In this document: piece after piece, positions 3,162 through 62,019 of the stretch
How positions within the stretch are numbered: the stretch's first letter is position 1
How the letters are laid out: the number at the start of each line of letters is the position of its first letter
NCBI GenBank assembly: GCA_965205975.1
Contig: OZ242195.1
Coordinates: 3,862,656-3,926,655, forward strand
Source of the DNA: Candidatus Latescibacterota bacterium
GTDB taxonomy: Bacteria > Latescibacterota > UBA2968
Direction: 5' to 3'
DNA: 64,000 nt
The notes under the pieces: model-generated
What the model was told of the DNA's origin: nothing
The model's input: only the letters and a program-made list of their open reading frames with translations
The model's database searches: none
Translations under genes and position numbers: made by a program

Positions 3162-3821
3162 ATGCCCATCATCGACCTCACCATGCCCATTGCCGACCAC
3201 TTTCGCTGGCCTGTTGAGCGCAGCCTCAAAAGCAGTTTTGAAACCGGCGACATGGCGCAAGTGACCCACATGGGATGGGCTGTCCACGGATTTACGCACG
3301 TCGATGCGCCGTGCCACATGTTCCCGGAAGGACCCACCACCAGCGACACCGAACTCGACCAAATCGTGGGACAGGCCGCAGTCGTCGATCTCTCGGGCAT
3401 CGCGCCGGAAACGCCGATCACCGAAGCGCAGATTCGCGCTGCCGGACAGCACATACGGTCTGGAGACATCGTCGTCATGAAAACGCGGTGGGACGAAATA
3501 GAATCGCATCAAACCCCCGAATTCTGGACCCGCGCGCCCTACATGTCGCGCCCCGCCGCAAAGTGGCTGCGCGCGCAAAACATCCGCGCCATAGCATTTG
3601 ACTTTCCGCAAGACTATCCCATACGCCAGTTGCTCAGTGGCGAGAGAGCACCCCTTTCCGAATTTGTAACCCACGACATCCTCTTGCGCGATGGCATCAT
3701 CCTCATCGAATACATCTGCAACACGGGCAGGATAGCTGCGGACCGCGTATCGTTCTTCGCCCTGCCCTTAAAAATCCCCGAAGCCGACGGCGCACCGGCT
3801 CGCGTCATCGCAATTCAATAA
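3162..3821 (+). CDS. cyclase family protein (kynurenine formamidase-like)
   Basis: HMGWAVHGFTHVDAPCHM is the cyclase-family HxGTHxDxPxH motif. About 219 aa. Confidence 0.75.
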   Translation: MPIIDLTMPIADHFRWPVERSLKSSFETGDMAQVTHMGWAVHGFTHVDAPCHMFPEGPTTSDTELDQIVGQAAVVDLSGIAPETPITEAQIRAAGQHIRSGDIVVMKTRWDEIESHQTPEFWTRAPYMSRPAAKWLRAQNIRAIAFDFPQDYPIRQLLSGERAPLSEFVTHDILLRDGIILIEYICNTGRIAADRVSFFALPLKIPEADGAPARVIAIQ

Positions 3822-3837
3822 CCCCTGGAAAATCACC

Positions 3838-5202
3838 ATGATCTACCACCAACTCTTCTCCCAAATTGACCGCACCGTACGCGTTGGCGTCATCGGCACC
3901 GGACACTACGCCACAGCCCTCATCACACAATCGCGCGTCGTCGATCAACTCCACGTACCCGTCGTCTGTGACACAAACCCTGACGCAGCCCAAAATGCAT
4001 ATCATCACGCCGGCCTGGACACCGACAAAACCATCATAGCCGACACCACCCAACAGGCAGCCAAAGCCATAGAACAGGGCAAACACGTCATCCTCACCGA
4101 CGCCATGCAAATGATGGACCTGCCCCTCGACGTCATCGTAGAATCCACGGGCGTCCCGAGTGCAGGCGCAAAACACGGCATAGAAGCCATACGACACGGC
4201 AAACACGTCGCCATGGTATCCAAAGAAACCGACGTCACCGTCGGACCCATCCTCAAACACCTCGCAGACAAAGCCGGACTCGTCTATACCGCTGTTGACG
4301 GCGACCAGCACGGCCTGCTCATGGGCCTTGTGCAATGGGCGCGCGGCCTGGGCCTCGAAGTACTCTGCGGAGGCAAATCACTGGACTCTGACCGCGTTTA
4401 CGACCCACAGACCAACGCCATCGTCTGGTCCAAAGGCAAAATCCAGATCCCCGACGAACAGATATTCTCCACCCAAAATCCCTCGGCCTACATCGCACAA
4501 CGCCGTCAAATCATGGGCGAACTCGGCGCCATCGCCGGTTACGACATCACCGAACTCACCATCGCCGCCAATGCCACCGGTCTCATCCCCGATATAGACA
4601 CCCTGCACACACCCGTAGTCCGCACCGTTGAAATACCCGAAGTCCTCGCACCCAGAGAAGACGGCGGCATCTTATCCCACCGCGGCGTCATCGACTGCGT
4701 CTCCTGCCTGCGCCAGGCAAATGAACCCGGCCTTGGCGGCGGCGTCTTCATCGTCATCGCCTGTGAAAACGCCTACTCCCGCCACATCCTCACCACCAAA
4801 GGACTCATCCCCAACAAAAAAGGCACCACAGCCCTCATCTACCGCCCCTATCACCTCTGCGGCGTTGAAACACCCATCACAACACTCGTCGCCGGCCTCT
4901 TAAACCTGCCCACGGGCACGACCGACTACCACCCATCCTTTGACGTTGTAGGCCGCGCAAAAGAACACCTCAAAGCCGGTGATCGGATCGGCAACGACCA
5001 CAGCAAAAACATCGAATACCTCATGCGCCCCGCGCTACCCGTCGCGCCCGACAACCCCCTCCCCTACCACATGGCCAACGGCAATACCCTCAGCCGGGAC
5101 ATCCCCGCTGGCACCTTCATCACAGCAAGCGCGATACAACCCAAAGACAACGACCCCCTCTGGACGCTTCGCAAAGAACAGGACGCGCATTTTCTAAAAT
5201 AA
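3838..5202 (+). CDS. NAD(P)-binding oxidoreductase, homoserine-dehydrogenase-like with a C-terminal SAF-like region (COG4091-type)
   Basis: N-terminal Rossmann motif VGVIGTGHYAT and a 454-aa architecture typical of predicted homoserine-dehydrogenase-like proteins. The family assignment is tentative. Confidence 0.5.
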   Translation: MIYHQLFSQIDRTVRVGVIGTGHYATALITQSRVVDQLHVPVVCDTNPDAAQNAYHHAGLDTDKTIIADTTQQAAKAIEQGKHVILTDAMQMMDLPLDVIVESTGVPSAGAKHGIEAIRHGKHVAMVSKETDVTVGPILKHLADKAGLVYTAVDGDQHGLLMGLVQWARGLGLEVLCGGKSLDSDRVYDPQTNAIVWSKGKIQIPDEQIFSTQNPSAYIAQRRQIMGELGAIAGYDITELTIAANATGLIPDIDTLHTPVVRTVEIPEVLAPREDGGILSHRGVIDCVSCLRQANEPGLGGGVFIVIACENAYSRHILTTKGLIPNKKGTTALIYRPYHLCGVETPITTLVAGLLNLPTGTTDYHPSFDVVGRAKEHLKAGDRIGNDHSKNIEYLMRPALPVAPDNPLPYHMANGNTLSRDIPAGTFITASAIQPKDNDPLWTLRKEQDAHFLK

Positions 5203-21560: not shown

Positions 21561-21601
21561 AAAAAGTCCGGATACACGATATGGTATCCGGACTTTTTTT
21601 T
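21561..21601. terminator. Rho-independent terminator (bidirectional: A-run, perfect 10-bp stem, T-run)
   Basis: AAAAAGTCCGGATAC-ACGATATG-GTATCCGGACTTTTTTTT. Confidence 0.85.
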
Positions 21602-21623: not shown

Positions 21624-21989
21624 TCAAGTGTGGTATTTTCGGTAAAATTCTTTTACTATTTTGGATGTGCGTTTAGATTTACATAGACCTGCATGCATCC
21701 TATATAATAATTCATTGGATATAGTTTCTTGTTGCTTTCCCTGTCTTTTAATATATTCGACATTGGATTCTTTGATTATGCTCGCTTTTCCGTATAGAAC
21801 GACAGATTTTTTTCTTATGAAGGGATGTTCACCAGGTTGAATAATACAAGTCTCATCTGAATTTTTACGCCATGATGTGATATTCACTATTATTGCTTGT
21901 GGTGGGTCGCCCAAATAATCTGTTAAAAATATATGTAAATGATAGCCCCCACCATCTTCAAACAAATAACACTCGCCAGCTAATGACAT
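21624..21989 (-). CDS. uncharacterised small protein encoded immediately downstream of a Panacea-domain gene; candidate toxin
   Basis: 121 aa: MSLAGECYLFEDGGGYHLHIFLTDYLG... Its N-terminus is homologous to ORF 59733..59966 (MGLAGTCILAQDEIGIRKHLLIFVTDLV). AT-rich. Confidence 0.5.
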   Translation of the reverse strand: MSLAGECYLFEDGGGYHLHIFLTDYLGDPPQAIIVNITSWRKNSDETCIIQPGEHPFIRKKSVVLYGKASIIKESNVEYIKRQGKQQETISNELLYRMHAGLCKSKRTSKIVKEFYRKYHT

Positions 21990-21991
21990 AT

Positions 21992-22570
21992 TTATCCAAT
22001 TAACTTATCGTAAAATAGCATGACACGCATTTCGTCTTTTATTGCCATTAAATCTTCTCCGTCCCATCCTGTAACATTGAAAAGTGTAGTCCAGGATATT
22101 GGTGTAGAAGTCTCGCCAGATTCCTCAAATTCAGGTAGAGAATGCGTATATTCTTTTAACTCTTGAAAACTCATATTTCCGTACTTTTTAAATACATCAT
22201 TCATTAATTCAATTTCTATCTCGGATAATTCCCCATCATCTACATCAAATGTTTTCAACCTCACAATATGATCTGTTTGAGAATATGAAAAGTACTTTGA
22301 CCAATATTCTCCTTTCTTCTTTTCGCATGCAAGATCATAGGTATTACTCAACACAGGACCAAAAGGCATATTGAATGGCCTGTCAAATGTTACAAGGTCG
22401 CCAAATTTTTCTAAGCCACGCCGATCAATTAGATACATCAGTTTAATGAGCTTGTACAAATCAATTTTGCCACCATTGCGTTTTGCCAACAACGTAGCGA
22501 TTTGTACGGTTTTTAACTCCTTGAAAGCGGGAACATCACTGTCGGAAACAAAAACCTTATCCTTGACCAT
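21992..22570 (-). CDS. Panacea-domain (DUF4065, SocA/PanA-like antitoxin) protein
   Basis: DLYKLIKLMYLIDRRGLEKFGDLVTFDRPFNMPFGPVLSNTYDL is the Panacea core. The ATG is at M18, with an AAGGAGG RBS. The paralog is at 59957..60661. Confidence 0.7.
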   Translation of the reverse strand: MVKDKVFVSDSDVPAFKELKTVQIATLLAKRNGGKIDLYKLIKLMYLIDRRGLEKFGDLVTFDRPFNMPFGPVLSNTYDLACEKKKGEYWSKYFSYSQTDHIVRLKTFDVDDGELSEIEIELMNDVFKKYGNMSFQELKEYTHSLPEFEESGETSTPISWTTLFNVTGWDGEDLMAIKDEMRVMLFYDKLIG

Positions 22571-22845
22571 CTTGACCTCCTTACACAGGGGAATATAAGG
22601 GGAAGGTTTGAGGTTAGACACCTTATCCTATATTAAATATAGAGAACCGATACTCCTGCGTCAAATTTTAAGGAGAATCCCTATATCCCAAACTACGCTA
22701 TTTATTGAGTTTTAACTCCTCACCTACTTCAATCTTCGCGTCAATTTTTATTCTCGTCACGGCAGCAAAACATGATCCTTGATATGGAATCGTTTTTTGT
22801 GTAAATTTAATTTGTCATTTTAGATTTACACAAAAAAACGCGCTT

Positions 22846-53589: not shown

Positions 53590-54108
53590 TCACGCATCCA
53601 ACACGTGCTCAAATGCCTCAAGACTGGACACCTGAACCGCCGAGCGAAGCAACTGCTTCAGGCGCTGCAAATCATCAATCGCGGCAATGCGCGTGGATAG
53701 CGGGTGCGCTTCACGCAGATCAAATCGAATCTCCAACACGTCGAGGATATCTTCGAGCTTACTTCTTCTTTCACCTTCCTCAATACCCTGTTGCTTGATG
53801 TATTGTGTAAACGACGATTCGCGCATGATGGCGTCCATAAGACCCTCCTGTAAGAGAATGCGATTGATCAGTGCCTCATCATACTCTAACCCACTCAATA
53901 TCATCAACCGCTCCAAAATGTCAACCTTTATTGATTCATCCACCCGCAAAGCATTTGCAGCGTCAACACAGTGATGCAGCCACGCCTCTGAATCTATGCC
54001 AACAGGACGCTTCATCAACGATGCAAATGGAAACAAGCCCGAAGGTCCACCATCAAGAATATCCTGTCCTTCTATCTCACTCAACCGAATCACTGTGTAT
54101 TCTAACAA
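53590..54108 (-). pseudogene. N-terminally truncated Rpn-family (YhgA-like recombination-promoting nuclease / putative transposase) gene fragment
   Basis: Its 172 aa align with residues ~125-321 of the full-length paralog 57875..58840 (VIRLSEIEGQDILDGGPSGLFPF...). It lacks the N-terminal PD-(D/E)XK nuclease region and the GIEQ repeat. The upstream sequence 54170-54290 matches the upstream region of the intact copy. Confidence 0.6.
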
Positions 54109-57176: not shown

Positions 57177-57455
57177 TTATTTCAGCCCAACCTCTCGACG
57201 CAAGTCGTCAACGGATTGGGCGGGTTCTGTACCGGCTTTTGCTCGATTTAGCGCTGTTGCCAATCGTTCCGCATTTTTGGGTGAGCTGAGAAGATGAGCG
57301 GTTTCTATGAGACTGGCAAGCTCAGACGCAGAAATCAAAGCAACATCTTCATGCCCCGGACGGGTGATAATGACGTAATCACTGTCATCCGTCACATCTT
57401 TGCAGAGACTGGCGAGCCTATCGCGTGCCTGAGTATAGGAAAATGTTCTGGTCAT
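57177..57455 (-). CDS. yefM: Phd/YefM-family type II antitoxin (orphan; no toxin gene downstream)
   Basis: 92 aa: MTRTFSYTQARDRLASLCKDVTDDSDYVIITRPGHEDVALISASELASLIETAHL is the YefM fold signature. The position where a toxin gene would be expected downstream is occupied by a B-type repeat. Confidence 0.75.
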   Translation of the reverse strand: MTRTFSYTQARDRLASLCKDVTDDSDYVIITRPGHEDVALISASELASLIETAHLLSSPKNAERLATALNRAKAGTEPAQSVDDLRREVGLK

Positions 57456-57874: not shown

Positions 57875-58840
57875 TCACCCATCCAACGCTTGCTCAAATG
57901 CCTCAAGATTGGACACCTGGATCGCCGCACGGTGCAACTGCTTGAGACGTTGCAAATCATCAATCGCGGCAATGCGTTTGGATAGCGGGTGTGCTTCACG
58001 CAGGTCAAATCGAATCTCCAACACGTCGAGAATATCTTCAATCGCGCGTTGCCTGCCCCCTTGCTCAATACCTTGCTCAATACCTTGCTCAATACCCTGC
58101 TCAATACCTTGCTCAATACCTTGCTCAATACCCTGCTCAATACCTTGCTCAATACCTAATTGCTTGATGTATTGTGCAGACAATGATTCGCGCATAATGG
58201 CATCCATAAGACCCTCCTGTAATAGAATACGATTGATCAGTGTCGGATCATACGCTAACCCACTCAATATCATCAACCTGCCTAAAAAGTCAACCTTTAT
58301 TGATTCATCCACCGGCAGCGCATTCGTCGCGTCAACACAGTGACGCAGCCACGCCTCTGAATCTATGCCAGACGGACGCTTCATCAACGGCACGAACGGA
58401 AACAAGCCCGAAGGTCCACCATCAAGAATATCCTGTCCCTCTATTTCACTCAGCCGAATCACGCTATATTTGATCACAGCAAGATGGCCGGACATTTTAT
58501 GAATAAAGTGCCCCGGATCGCGCCGACCTGCATTGCGTCGCAAGTAGATCACACTGGAATAAATCGGCAGGTTGTGCTGCTCTATCGCACGTATCATATA
58601 GCCCGCCATGCGCAGCGGCATAGACGGATCGTCAGTGGTTTGAAACTCCGTATGGATCAACGCCTCCTCACCTGCGATAAGGACGCGGATAAGGCTGTCC
58701 ATGTGTCGTGTTTCAACGGTGTTTTGCTCTGTGTCGAGGATGTCGAGGACTTCTACATCGTCCTGTCCGAATGTGAGGCGGATGAAGTCTTTGGGGTAGG
58801 TTTGGATGAGGTCTTTAGAGATGGTGTCATATTCGGCCAT
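57875..58840 (-). CDS. Rpn-family recombination-promoting nuclease / putative transposase (YhgA-like), with an internal (GIEQ)x8 repeat
   Basis: 321 aa. N-terminal PD-(D/E)XK-like region (DSLIRVLIAGEEALIHTEFQ), a C-terminal DUF4351-like region, and a 12-bp in-frame tandem repeat at ~58040-58140. Confidence 0.7.
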   Translation of the reverse strand: MAEYDTISKDLIQTYPKDFIRLTFGQDDVEVLDILDTEQNTVETRHMDSLIRVLIAGEEALIHTEFQTTDDPSMPLRMAGYMIRAIEQHNLPIYSSVIYLRRNAGRRDPGHFIHKMSGHLAVIKYSVIRLSEIEGQDILDGGPSGLFPFVPLMKRPSGIDSEAWLRHCVDATNALPVDESIKVDFLGRLMILSGLAYDPTLINRILLQEGLMDAIMRESLSAQYIKQLGIEQGIEQGIEQGIEQGIEQGIEQGIEQGIEQGGRQRAIEDILDVLEIRFDLREAHPLSKRIAAIDDLQRLKQLHRAAIQVSNLEAFEQALDG

Positions 58841-59098
58841 GTGGCATGCCTCGCGTCTGATGGGTGAATTTGATCAGACACAAAGCAAATATCAGGCCAA
58901 CATCACTGAATTGAGCGATACATTGTATGGACAGAAGCTCAAATAGCCGCATCAGGCGTTTAATATGCTGTAACCTGAATGCAGGAAGCACCTTTGGAGA
59001 TACATACACATGGAACGCGCTGAAAGGTAAGAGTGTAAGTTTTGATCCATGAAGAATGGGATATCGTGAAAAATATGTACCTTATTATTATAACGCAA

Positions 59099-59719
59099 TC
59101 ATTTCTCGATACTGTGTTCAAGCCGGCCGATCTCGTCGCGCAGCCTGGCGGCTTCTTCGTACTCTTCCAGCGCAACCGCCTCTTGCAAACGCGCCTTGAG
59201 CGCATCTACCTGCTGCGTCACCTGATCGGGTGCCTCTTCAGTGGATTCATCCTCTCCTGCAGCCCTTATAAAAGCAGCAATATTCTCAACGCCTTCAATG
59301 GGTGCCTCGGCCTCTTGCATCTCGACCGACAGCCCCGCCTCCTCAATCACCTGATCTGCCACAAAAATCGGGGCATCAACGCGCAACGCCAATGCCAGCG
59401 CATCGCTCGGACGCGAATCAATACAAATCGATTCCCCATCGCGGACAAGCGTAATCTCCGCAAAAAACGTCTCGTCTTTCAACGCACTGACCAGCACCTG
59501 CTCGACGTGTACATCGAACCCCTCTAAAATATCACACAACAAATCATAGGCAATCGGGCGCGGCGGCGGCTCATCGTGAAGCGCTATAGAAATCGCAACC
59601 GCCTCAAAATTGCCAATCGCAATGGGCAAAAAGACCTTCTGGTCCTTATCCTTTAGCCAGACCAGCGGATGACTGCTATTGGGTTCAAGCTGCACGGCAA
59701 TCACTTCCATTTCTGTCAT
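59099..59719 (-). CDS. bifunctional nuclease (BFN/DUF151) domain protein with a C-terminal UVR motif
   Basis: IALHDEPPPRPIAYDL..FAEITLVRDGE..IDSRPSDALALALR and C-terminal ALEEYEEAARLRDEIGRLE (UvrB/C-like). The ATG is at M13 of the TTG-initiated track ORF. Confidence 0.7.
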   Translation of the reverse strand: MTEMEVIAVQLEPNSSHPLVWLKDKDQKVFLPIAIGNFEAVAISIALHDEPPPRPIAYDLLCDILEGFDVHVEQVLVSALKDETFFAEITLVRDGESICIDSRPSDALALALRVDAPIFVADQVIEEAGLSVEMQEAEAPIEGVENIAAFIRAAGEDESTEEAPDQVTQQVDALKARLQEAVALEEYEEAARLRDEIGRLEHSIEK

Positions 59720-59732
59720 GCGAGAAATCCTT

Positions 59733-59966
59733 TTAGATGAGGGAATTAGATACAATATCGAATATAAAAGTCTCGAACCTCAAATCTCGTATATTTAGAT
59801 TTTTGCAACCCTGCAATAACACGAGCCAACACATATTGACGGCAATTGCAAAATACTCTGTCTCGTTACTCCGAACAACAGGAACAAGGTCAGTCACAAA
59901 AATAAGCAGATGTTTACGGATTCCAATTTCATCTTGAGCAAGAATACAGGTGCCCGCTAATCCCAT
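59733..59966 (-). CDS. small ORF downstream of the second Panacea-domain gene; N-terminally homologous to 21624..21989 (candidate toxin, possibly truncated)
   Basis: MGLAGTCILAQDEIGIRKHLLIFVTDLV aligns with MSLAGECYLFEDGGGYHLHIFLTDYL. 77 aa. It overlaps the Panacea gene stop by 10 nt. Confidence 0.4.
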   Translation of the reverse strand: MGLAGTCILAQDEIGIRKHLLIFVTDLVPVVRSNETEYFAIAVNMCWLVLLQGCKNLNIRDLRFETFIFDIVSNSLI

Positions 59967-60661
59967 GCATGTCCAATCATTTTTTCAAAATCCGCTCTGA
60001 TAGCCAAATCTTCTCGTATATCCAATATATCATCCTCATCCCATCCAACAGCACGCAACCAATTATTCCACTCAATAGGTCGAGCAGTGTTACCCGTATC
60101 TTCATACTCTGCCAATTTGTGCGTCTGTTGAGATATTTCATGAAAAGACATATGTCCAACTTCTTCTATCACTTTGTTGATATATTCCATATTCGCTTCA
60201 GACAACGCACCTGTACCAACTTCAACATCTCGCAACTTTACAAGATGTTTGGTATCAAGCCCCCAAAATACCTTATTCCAATACCTACCATTGCCTTCTT
60301 TTATCAATCTATATGTACAGCTCAATAACGGTCCAAACTTCATATTACAAGGACGATCAAAAGTGATGGGATAACCGCGGTCCTCCAGAGACTTTCGATC
60401 TATCAAATAGATTATCTTGAGCAATTTGCCCATATCCATCTTATTGTTAAATTTCTTTACCAATAAGGCAGCAACCTGCACTGTTTTTCTCTCATCAAAA
60501 TCAGGAAGTTTCAAGTCGTCAACGTGAGAGGACCGTAATGTTGCCAGACTCGTTGGACAAGATTCGAGGTAACACCAGTGTACAGGGTTCCGTTGCGTTT
60601 GCTCGCCATGATATATACGCAGGGTTGGTTCATTCCTTAAATATTCTGGATCGCGGCTCAA
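59957..60661 (-). CDS. Panacea-domain (DUF4065, PanA-like antitoxin) protein, paralog 2
   Basis: MGKLLKIIYLIDRKSLEDRGYPITFDRPCNMKFGPLLSCTYRL aligns along its length with 21992..22570. AT-rich islet. The start is uncertain. Confidence 0.65.
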   Translation of the reverse strand: MSRDPEYLRNEPTLRIYHGEQTQRNPVHWCYLESCPTSLATLRSSHVDDLKLPDFDERKTVQVAALLVKKFNNKMDMGKLLKIIYLIDRKSLEDRGYPITFDRPCNMKFGPLLSCTYRLIKEGNGRYWNKVFWGLDTKHLVKLRDVEVGTGALSEANMEYINKVIEEVGHMSFHEISQQTHKLAEYEDTGNTARPIEWNNWLRAVGWDEDDILDIREDLAIRADFEKMIGHAWD

Positions 60662-60965
60662 CTACATAGCCTGCCCCGTAGTGATTCTATACGGGGCCGC
60701 GATGACGAGTGCCACCGCATAGGCATGTGTCGTAATAGCCTGCTCTGGAATGTTTTAATCCAGAGATTCTATACGGCAGGCTTTGCTCGACACCTCTGGA
60801 TTAATGAATTCATTAAAAATAATGAAGTATAAACAGACAAAAAGCAAGCGGAAATAGTCTGTCCCCTTTATTAACACCTCAAGGGACAGATAAAACCTTC
60901 TGGATCGCGGCTCAAGCATGTCCCTGCATGGTGTTGAGCAGGGAACCCATACCGCGATGACGGCG
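60641..60965. repeat. two B/D-type composite palindromic repeats flanking an AT-rich spacer
   Basis: TTCTGGATCGCGGCTCAACTACATAGCCTGCCCCGTAGTGATTCTATACGGGGCCGCGATGAC and CTTCTGGATCGCGGCTCAAGCATGTCCCTGCATGGTGTTGAGCAGGGAACCCATACCGCGATGAC. Confidence 0.85.
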
Positions 60966-61077
60966 GTACCCTCTTCTCCCTTCACACTTCATTCTTCTCC
61001 CTTCTCTTGACAGCCCGCGCGTCGCATCGTATCATTAAACCCGTATTCACGCAACCCATAACCTCAGGAGAATCGCT

Positions 61078-62019
61078 ATGTCCTCCCCCTGCTGCGGTGC
61101 GAGCAGACCTGTCTCATCCAAAAAAAGAAAAACGCGCAAACAAAAAAACAGGCGCAGAAATGACACACCCCTCAAAAACATGATCCGCATATCGGGCGGC
61201 ACATTTCTCATGGGAACAGACAGCGACGAAGGCTTCGCAGAAGACGGCGAAGGACCCATGAGAGAAGTCACAATCGATCCCTTTTACCTCGATGCGTGCG
61301 CCGTCACCAACGCCGACTTTGCCAAATTCGTCCGCACAACCGCGTACAAAACCGAAGCCGAACGCTTTGGCTGGTCCTTTGTATTCCACCTCTTTGTACC
61401 TCCCAACACCGCATCGCACATCTCGCAAACCGTCGTAGATACCCCCTGGTGGTTTGCTGTTGACGGCGCCTGCTGGCACCGCCCCGAAGGACCGGGAACA
61501 AATGTCAACAACCGCTGGAACCACCCCGCCATCCACATCTCGTGGAACGACGCCGTCGCCTATTGCAACTGGACGGGAAAACGCCTGCCCACAGAAGCCG
61601 AATGGGAATTTGCCGCACGGGGCGGCTTAAACAGCATGCGCTACCCCTGGGGAGACGACCTCGAACCCAACGGCAAACACATGTGCAACATCTGGCAGGG
61701 CACATTCCCCGAAGAAAACACCAGAGCAGATGGGCACATCGGCACCGCACCCGTCACCTCATACCCCCCCAACAACTACGGCATCTACAACATCTCGGGC
61801 AACGTCTGGGAATGGTGCAGCGACTGGTTCAGCCCCACCTTTCACCTCAAAAGCACCTCTGTAAACCCCACGGGACCCCACATCGGACAGGCGAAAAGCA
61901 TGCGCGGCGGCTCCTACCTTTGCCACGACTCCTACTGCAACCGATACCGCGTTGCTGCCCGCAGCGCAAACACCCCGGACAGCTCCACGGGCAATCTGGG
62001 GTTTCGGTGTGCGAGGTGA
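61078..62019 (+). CDS. formylglycine-generating enzyme (FGE/SUMF1 family), the sulfatase-maturing enzyme
   Basis: RISGGTFLMGTD, WEWCSDWF, and RGGSYLCHDSYCNRYRVAARS (Cu-binding Cys pair) are typical of aerobic FGE. AGGAG RBS. Confidence 0.88.
   Translation: MSSPCCGASRPVSSKKRKTRKQKNRRRNDTPLKNMIRISGGTFLMGTDSDEGFAEDGEGPMREVTIDPFYLDACAVTNADFAKFVRTTAYKTEAERFGWSFVFHLFVPPNTASHISQTVVDTPWWFAVDGACWHRPEGPGTNVNNRWNHPAIHISWNDAVAYCNWTGKRLPTEAEWEFAARGGLNSMRYPWGDDLEPNGKHMCNIWQGTFPEENTRADGHIGTAPVTSYPPNNYGIYNISGNVWEWCSDWFSPTFHLKSTSVNPTGPHIGQAKSMRGGSYLCHDSYCNRYRVAARSANTPDSSTGNLGFRCAR

Follow-up and report, generated by a model that had tools for sequence, protein, structure and literature searches.

A probable remnant of a PanAT-like toxin–antitoxin operon, with an intact paralogue in the same stretch, in a Candidatus Latescibacterota genome

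Genes and remnants at the locus

We examined a 64,000-nucleotide stretch of a Candidatus Latescibacterota genome (contig OZ242195.1; referred to below as the window) and focused on positions 59733-60661, where a gene for a Panacea-domain protein is followed by a small open reading frame (ORF). A preliminary description, made from the sequence by itself, had taken this pair for a paralogous copy of a module at 21624-22570, in which a toxin had decayed or been hit by a frameshift while the antitoxin-like gene was retained. The evidence presented here indicates that the locus is very probably the degenerate remnant of a chromosomal type II toxin–antitoxin (TA) operon of the PanAT kind. Genes, gene remnants, deletion junctions and repeats cited by window coordinates all lie on the minus strand; related contigs are denoted by L numbers and database proteins by P numbers.

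The ORF listing gives two ORFs with a 10-nt overlap, one of 234 amino acids (aa; 59957-60661) and, downstream of it, one of only 77 aa (59733-59966), the latter exactly where it had been reported. The 234-aa ORF matches the Pfam family SocA_Panacea (PF13274; E 1.4e-18, with 68.3 bits where the cutoff is 25.7), as does the Panacea ORF of the module at 21624-22570 (21992-22621; E 2.4e-18). The two Panacea paralogues are 42% identical over 201 aa (E 2e-57), in agreement with the proposed paralogy of the two modules. The Panacea assignment therefore stands, but the extent of the ORF does not: it opens with a TTG at 60661 that lies inside a palindromic repeat, and its first ~40 codons do not belong to Panacea but read through what is left of a GIY-YIG nuclease gene in an alternative frame. 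What is left of the Panacea gene, which would encode a PanA-like antitoxin (PF13274), is an in-frame and uninterrupted coding sequence of codons 9-201 plus the stop (59957-60538; 93% aa identity to P0005), from which the native start codon is gone. The GIY-YIG remnant (60511-60633) consists of the genuine codons 1-31 and an out-of-frame tail that runs to a TGA; in a tblastn search with the 95-aa GIY-YIG protein of contig L009, it matched residues 1-36 at 89%. Overlapping that TGA is a TTG in the Panacea frame (60512-60514, as TTGA), which, from a reading of the sequence only, might act as a coupled restart codon.

The 77-aa ORF is on record once, as database protein P0022 on a single 5.56-Mb contig, and an exact look-up for contigs coding for its product found none. 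It is best described as a chimaeric pseudogene product. Codons 1-43 (59838-59966) are the genuine N-terminus of a PanT-like, MazF-fold toxin that starts with the ATG at 59966, giving a 10-nt overlap with the Panacea stop, and the rest of the ORF is out-of-frame read-through. The true C-terminus of the toxin, codons 107-135 with the original stop (59746-59748), is found at 59746-59837, in a frame that differs from that of the ATG at 59966.

Both flanking features that had been named for the locus are present. The two upstream palindromic repeats, which had been placed at 60641-60965, occupy about 60636-60720 (copy 1, which holds the TTG at 60661) and 60890-60975 (copy 2, folding z -3.3), and resemble repetitive extragenic palindromic (REP) elements. 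The next gene downstream (59099-59719; 218-aa ORF, probable ATG at 59719) carries a BFN_dom and a UVR domain (Pfam E 7e-36 and 2e-8). This bifunctional-nuclease-domain gene is syntenic in L007, L009, L012 and L025, as a conserved chromosomal neighbour outside the module. No RNA family was found by Rfam over 59000-61200.

Two ends of a toxin gene in two frames

When compared with the 121-aa paralogue at 21624-21989, the 77-aa ORF matches over residues 1-28, with 14/28 identical (E 9e-6). The Smith-Waterman score of its N-terminus is 54, against 22.6 +/- 3.9 for shuffled sequences, and 0 of 5000 shuffles reach 54. The N-terminal similarity noticed earlier thus holds against shuffled controls, with an E value far below the limit of 0.01 that had been set for it. 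For residues 45-77, no similarity to the paralogue was found, 1468 of 5000 shuffles scoring as well. The preliminary description had proposed aligning the surrounding frames to the 121-aa paralogue to detect frameshifts. A tblastn search of the whole window recovered the C-terminal 26 residues of the paralogue (94-119) at 59755-59832, in a different frame (E 0.025). It is the best non-self tblastn match in the whole window, with a score of 54 and no shuffle as good among 5000. Since the N- and C-termini of the toxin are both kept, in two frames and with too little DNA between them, the gene appears to have undergone an internal, out-of-frame deletion.

Divergence from the paralogue does set in after the HL-IF-TD motif, as had been described, but it reflects natural divergence between subfamilies, and the real break comes only after residue 43/44. 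In a global MAFFT alignment of both window modules the internal deletion was masked, the difference in length being assigned to the 3' end; it became visible by tblastn and by alignment with an orthologue.

Two deletions relative to an intact orthologous locus

The intact state of the locus is seen in L009, a metagenome contig of 1564 nt in ENA that was reached through a search for Panacea homologues and has ~95% DNA identity to the window. Its genes are, in order, a GIY-YIG gene of 95 aa (PF01541, E 1e-16), which is intact, a Panacea gene of 201 aa that begins with ATG, a 135-aa gene that overlaps it and is likewise intact, and the start of the BFN gene. Alignment blocks show that the window flanks are colinear with L009 at ~95% identity, and that two segments within them are missing from the window.

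The deletion in the toxin gene removed 187 nt (L009 1190-1376), corresponding to codons 44-106 of the 135-aa gene. Its junction at window 59838/59837 joins L009 1189 to L009 1377, and there is AAT microhomology at the breakpoints. As 187 nt equals 3 x 62 + 1, the frame was shifted as well. Toxin codons 1-43 and the last 29 codons plus stop persist in the window in different frames, and the 77-aa ORF is consequently a chimaera of a real N-terminus and frame-shifted read-through. The N-terminal remnant (59838-59966) aligns to L009 1061-1189 at ~96% identity, and the first 43 residues of the 77-aa ORF are 98% identical to the intact orthologue. A tblastn search with the 135-aa orthologue recovered its residues 1-48 at the N-terminal remnant (92%) and its residues 103-135 at the C-terminal remnant (85%, E 6e-14). 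The suggestion that the toxin had decayed is borne out by this comparison, an intact 135-aa orthologue being present in a contig ~95% identical to the window. The frameshift that had been offered as the alternative is correct insofar as the frame is shifted, but the lesion is a large deletion and not a simple frameshift. The lost segment includes the VN-x-T-T motif and the strands and helix that follow it. Because this is most of the beta-barrel, with five of eight nearly invariant family positions and the threonine that aligns to T52 of MazF, the window toxin copy is predicted from its sequence to be unable to function.

The deletion at the start of the antitoxin gene removed 237 nt (L009 251-487), with its junction at window 60540/60539 corresponding to L009 250/488. 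It took GIY-YIG codons 32-95 (two thirds of that gene), the intergenic region and Panacea codons 1-8 including the ATG, and it joins GIY-YIG codon 31 to Panacea codon 9. Intact 95-aa orthologues of the GIY-YIG gene, which was cut by the same deletion as the Panacea start, are found in L009, L012 and L025. The antitoxin-like gene has thus been retained from codon 9 to codon 201, but without its first eight codons and ATG. Both lesions are clean and have short microhomology, and neither is a homopolymer indel. Between them they leave no intact, expressible toxin or antitoxin gene at 59733-60661, the toxin being deleted and frameshifted and the antitoxin lacking its ATG and codons 1-8.

The part of the Panacea gene that remains covers the site of the GPV motif, a Panacea-domain signature stated to be critical for neutralisation (PMC8832971). 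It reads FGPL in the window copy, FGPV in L009 and in the paralogous module, and FGPI in L007; in the compared Panacea proteins the G-P does not change, and different hydrophobic residues occupy the third position. The Panacea paralogues of the window also carry a conserved ~50-residue C-terminal extension past the Pfam domain (GWD-x-ED/E-L/I), at 59957-60108 (residues ~152-201) and 21992-22140. By analogy with the Phd-C-type extensions of other PanA proteins, this extension could be the toxin-neutralising element.

The intact paralogue and the fold of its toxin

The paralogous module (module 1) contains an intact Panacea antitoxin gene (21992-22570; PF13274) followed by an intact gene for the 121-aa MazF-fold toxin (21624-21989). 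A promoter-like site lies upstream (22636-22664) and a terminator-like hairpin of 15 bp lies after the toxin gene (21561-21598), and on these sequence features module 1 looks complete. Orthologues, again as pairs of a Panacea gene and a 121-aa gene, occupy the syntenic position in related genomes (L001-L003 and L013). Damaged copies of module 1 also occur: in P0004 a deletion has fused the C-terminus of Panacea with the last 39 toxin residues, L014 has a frameshifted toxin (3564-3927), and L004 has a fragmented Panacea gene beside an intact toxin (472-1052), possibly owing to sequencing error in this 4x-coverage contig.

Neither small protein is matched by any model in Pfam, NCBIfam or PADLOC. 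The 135-aa subfamily, for which intact orthologues form ten database clusters, aligns end to end with the 121-aa subfamily at ~40% identity (about 38-40%). A word-indexed search gave only 4 relatives of the 121-aa protein, which would have made for a tiny family; this was rejected after an exhaustive profile search of 1.84 billion representative proteins gave 2083 relatives at E<=1e-3, 274 of them at E<=1e-10. These family members, about 2,000 in number, are clusters at 50% identity, and most are ~120-140 aa long among the 150 matches listed.

An AlphaFold2 model of the 121-aa paralogue, built from a deep alignment (pLDDT 96.7, pTM 0.89), has a MazF/CcdB-type SH3-like barrel. In a Foldseek search of the PDB, MazF/MoxT/Kid-type endoribonucleases were the top 47 of the 50 matches listed, with CcdB appearing once, at rank 48; the matches reached a probability of 1.00, with TM scores of 0.5-0.6. 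PemK-like proteins were the top Foldseek matches in the viral library BFVD, and a model from a shallower alignment gave the same fold result. At the level of sequence profiles, we compared the family by hhalign with a four-sequence alignment of MazF, EndoA and Kid and obtained 101 colinear columns (E 1.1e-4, probability 55.9%). This alignment pairs T38 of the VN-x-T-T motif with T52 of E. coli MazF, and L18, beside the near-invariant H17, with R29. In E. coli MazF, R29 and T52 are catalytic residues. The fold of the small protein, as modelled, is MazF-like, which stops short of sequence-level membership of the MazF family and of catalytic equivalence to MazF.

Pairing with Panacea and comparison with known systems

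A Panacea gene followed by a 121- or 135-aa gene is found in L001-L003, L009, L010 and L013, and the same arrangement is found for remote homologues in L018, L020, L023 and L024. Three of three remote family members (P0032, P0036 and P0170, on four contigs) are encoded directly downstream of a Panacea gene; for a fourth sampled member, P0100 on contig L022, the upstream sequence is too short to judge and the protein is not included in this count.

Among known systems, the closest match is to the PanAT pairs in which a standalone ('noNTD') PanA, encoded in antitoxin-toxin order with small gaps or overlaps, is paired with toxins of clusters T5/T6. PanT proteins of these clusters have no conserved-domain hits and are MazF/PemK-like by HHpred, and the PanAT of Pseudomonas moraviensis has been validated as a TA pair with a toxin that inhibits protein synthesis (Kurata et al. 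2022, PNAS, PMC8832971). Standalone Panacea has further been reported to be able to neutralise toxins directly (Ernits et al. 2023, PMC10440598). The modules described here are alike in having a ~200-aa antitoxin with a single Panacea domain (PF13274/DUF4065) and no N-terminal DNA-binding domain, in an antitoxin gene that precedes the toxin gene and is separated from it by a small gap or overlaps it slightly, and in a toxin of ~120-135 aa that lacks a conserved-domain hit and has a MazF/PemK-like fold, the toxins being likened by published description. The window copy at 59733-60661 differs in being a remnant, its toxin internally deleted and its antitoxin without a start, and the host here is Candidatus Latescibacterota. 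Given the Panacea-toxin architecture of Kurata et al. (2022) and the direct neutralisation of Ernits et al. (2023), a type II TA system is the most likely assignment for the intact module.

The MazF/PemK/Kid toxins (PF02452; MazEF, PemIK and Kis-Kid) share with this family the SH3-like barrel with C-terminal helices and a similar size, and the hhalign comparison places a conserved Thr of the family on T52 of E. coli MazF. The family nonetheless differs from them in having no significant PF02452 match, a near-invariant His-Leu where MazF has R29, and two extra C-terminal helices. Its partner is a Panacea protein, whereas theirs is a MazE/PemI antitoxin of the AbrB or ribbon-helix-helix (RHH) type.

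The Panacea domain also links the module to SocAB of Caulobacter crescentus, a type VI TA system. SocA is the founding Panacea-domain antitoxin and serves as an adaptor for ClpXP, by which SocB is degraded; the reported target of this toxin is the sliding clamp of DNA replication. The likeness lies in the SocA_Panacea domain on the antitoxin. The toxin partner here, set apart from SocB by description, has a MazF fold, which makes a direct-binding (type II) mechanism more likely, and a SocAB-type mechanism with a ClpXP adaptor was judged less likely on this ground.

Repeated loss of the toxin in related genomes

The related genome loci all come from metagenome-assembled genomes (MAGs) of Candidatus Latescibacterota. 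The order rpsF-rpsR-rplI ... (GIY-YIG)-Panacea-(toxin)-BFN is common to the window, L007 and L012, and the part around the module is also found in L009 and L025, which argues that the module is an old chromosomal resident at this site and not a recent arrival. The state of the toxin gene differs among these loci. It is intact in L009 and L010 and carries the 187-nt deletion in the window. L007 and L008 share a 334-nt deletion (L009 1050-1383) by which the 3' end of Panacea is fused to the last 27 codons of the toxin, and codon 58 of the L011 gene is an in-frame TAG. Only the first 27 codons of the toxin remain in L012 and L025, with UPF0175 and Phd/YefM antitoxin genes after the cut. It is gone from L015, which has an IS256-type transposase inside Panacea, and from L026, which has a DDE transposase adjacent. 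This amounts to at least six independent toxin inactivations among ten Panacea-anchored loci. The toxin is lost in 8/10, and in seven of these eight (all except L015) the Panacea frame is uninterrupted, the window copy lacking codons 1-8. A Panacea-based locus search of JGI metagenomes gave only two relatives, 33% identical.

Because L007 and L008 share the 334-nt deletion, their divergence postdates toxin loss. Their Panacea genes both keep the ATG and differ by 19 nonsynonymous and 20 synonymous substitutions, with a dN/dS of 0.22 (binomial P 2e-5 against neutrality). The same calculation on the 27-codon toxin remnants was uninformative, the counts being too small. We note that these toxin-derived 27 codons differ at 7 residues between L007 and L008. 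Both contigs also contain a 36-aa ORF with an ATG (L007 5011-5121; L008 2264-2374) that combines an alternative-frame read of the Panacea 3' end with the last two helices of the toxin; this ORF is probably accidental.

These loci resemble degenerate chromosomal TA loci and orphan antitoxins ('anti-addiction' genes), in which the toxin is inactivated first and the antitoxin ORF persists, with independent toxin lesions recurring in related genomes and the antitoxin under purifying selection. This is a general evolutionary pattern and no defined family, and an anti-addiction function would here be a matter of suggestion. It is conceivable, though in our estimation rather unlikely, that in this Latescibacterota clade the MazF-fold PanT, of a large Pfam-less toxin family that appears to be partnered only with Panacea, has been repeatedly purged while selection actively maintained the orphan Panacea, either for anti-addiction or immunity against incoming PanT toxins or in a toxin-independent sensor role.

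TA fragments seem to be concentrated around the module. In the window, a Phd/YefM paralogue of 92 aa, which is intact, lies ~2 kb from the module (57177-57455); the regions of L012 and L025 in which UPF0175-family and Phd/YefM antitoxin genes follow the cut toxin are L012 3753-4419 and L025 1341-1604.

Other features of the window

The repeats beside the module belong to a dispersed palindromic REP-like element with the core TTGAGCCGCGATCCAGAA, of which 11 copies were found in the 64 kb at <=3 mismatches (0.1 expected by chance). Besides those at 60636-60720 and 60890-60975, copies lie near 2358, 11249, 27244, 27306, 28052, 29994, 34203, 51312 and 57112. All 11 copies are on the minus strand, a strict strand bias. 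Nested hairpins are predicted for the two that flank the module (z -2.3 and -3.3).

A 321-aa ORF at 57875-58840 contains a perfect (GIEQ)x8 tandem peptide repeat and has no Pfam match at E<=0.01. A tblastn fragment at ~53776-53832 suggests that the window may have a related sequence elsewhere.

Interpretation of the remnant and its alternatives

The computed homology, the two deletions, the modelled fold, the conserved gene pairing and the repeated toxin loss suggest the following history for the locus. In its intact form, as in L009, the operon consists of a standalone Panacea antitoxin gene of ~200 aa and a 135-aa MazF/PemK-fold toxin gene overlapping it by 10 nt. By analogy with the validated MazF-like PanT, the intact toxin would most likely cleave RNA and so block translation and arrest growth, while direct binding by its Panacea partner would most likely hold it inactive. 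The 187-nt out-of-frame deletion ended the toxin, leaving the 77-aa ORF as an accidental chimaera, and the 237-nt deletion joined Panacea codon 9 to what remains of the GIY-YIG gene, its 5' third, with loss of the antitoxin's own start and upstream region. The remaining Panacea ORF may be a recently silenced pseudogene, or an orphan antitoxin made from the downstream TTG coupled to the GIY-YIG remnant.

Several observations weigh against this account. Both deletions are read from one assembled contig, and a search of the JGI metagenome collection gave no match to the deletion junction. Toxicity, RNase activity and neutralisation are attributed to the small-gene family by analogy. According to hhalign, the catalytic Arg29 of MazF is without a conserved Arg counterpart in the family, for which reason RNase chemistry is not assured, and a CcdB-like or other activity on a MazF-like fold is possible. 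No match of the window protein to PF02452 (PemK_toxin) was found even at E<=1, and one of 144 family members matches this model, at E 0.0025. Sequence-profile searches of the PDB gave no MazF-related match, with 0 hits for one alignment (A5) and four unrelated weak hits for another (A3). The Panacea genes of the window and L009 differ by 11 nonsynonymous and 17 synonymous substitutions, and their dN/dS of 0.15 mostly reflects time before the deletions and so says little about present constraint.

One alternative concerns the fate of the Panacea gene. With the toxin dead, Panacea might still be expressed and selected as an orphan antitoxin, through the promoter and start of the GIY-YIG gene and re-initiation at the TTG at 60514, and it could then give immunity ('anti-addiction') against an incoming homologous PanT or serve as a back-up neutraliser of the toxin at 21624-21989. 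Codons 9-201 are intact with a low dN/dS against L009, read with the caution just given; the L007 and L008 Panacea genes, with their ATG, have stayed constrained since their shared toxin deletion; seven of eight toxin-less loci keep an uninterrupted Panacea frame; and the TTGA stop/start overlap is visible in the sequence, such that re-initiation at 60512-60514 could, speculatively, give a 185-aa Panacea protein without only ~16 poorly conserved N-terminal residues. Yet the deletion took the native ATG, the first eight codons and all of the intergenic region upstream, no plausible promoter was found in a scan upstream of the shortened gene, and no Shine-Dalgarno-like sequence is seen by eye before the TTG. 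Cross-neutralisation is not to be expected at the identities between the two modules, which are as low as 42% for the antitoxins and ~38% for the toxins, and the window deletions appear recent enough that the ORF may simply have lacked time to decay. We therefore consider an expressed orphan antitoxin somewhat less probable than an even chance, and a recently silenced pseudogene more likely.

The other two alternatives concern the lesions and the 77-aa product. The genome might carry an intact module that was obscured by mis-assembly or by a minority variant in the MAG consensus; the sequence comes from one 5.56-Mb contig of a lineage that has not been cultured, the exact 77-aa product is on only one contig, and no match to the junction turned up in the JGI collection. 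We regard such an artefact as quite improbable, since clean deletions of 187 and 237 nt with short microhomology differ from homopolymer indels, the flanks are colinear with L009 at ~95% identity, and different toxin deletions are seen in contigs that come from other samples and were assembled independently (L007, L008, L012, L025, L015 and L026, and the protein P0004). Comparable deletions in independent assemblies indicate that toxin decay is a real feature of the clade. The native ATG and the 10-nt overlap with the Panacea stop are kept, so translation of the 77-aa ORF is possible, and with its first 43 residues 98% identical to the intact orthologue it might be imagined as a new functional small protein, for instance a Panacea-binding toxin fragment acting as a regulator or decoy. 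This is more improbable still: residues 45-77 come from reading the former C-terminus out of frame and resemble nothing, the product is on a single contig only, the 43 kept residues make up the first two to three strands of the barrel and are unlikely to fold alone, and the segment is lost altogether in L007, L008 and L026.

Under the favored reading of a degenerate PanAT-kind operon, the locus represents a known kind of TA system (PanA with a MazF-fold PanT) in decayed form, from a phylum without earlier description of it, with an intact paralogue in the same window. For annotation, neither the 77-aa ORF (P0022) nor the 234-aa ORF with its TTG start is a gene; they are to be replaced by a toxin pseudogene and a 5'-truncated Panacea gene. 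This is ordinary gene decay, and it leaves the current understanding of TA biology unchanged. It does provide a base-resolved example of how a chromosomal TA locus decays, toxin first and by a microhomology-flanked deletion, and such decay recurs within one phylum that has not been cultured. From the intact paralogue, a sizeable family of MazF-fold toxins without a Pfam model can be defined, which could be used for better annotation of TA systems and for tests of the way in which a MazF-like toxin is neutralised by a standalone Panacea domain.

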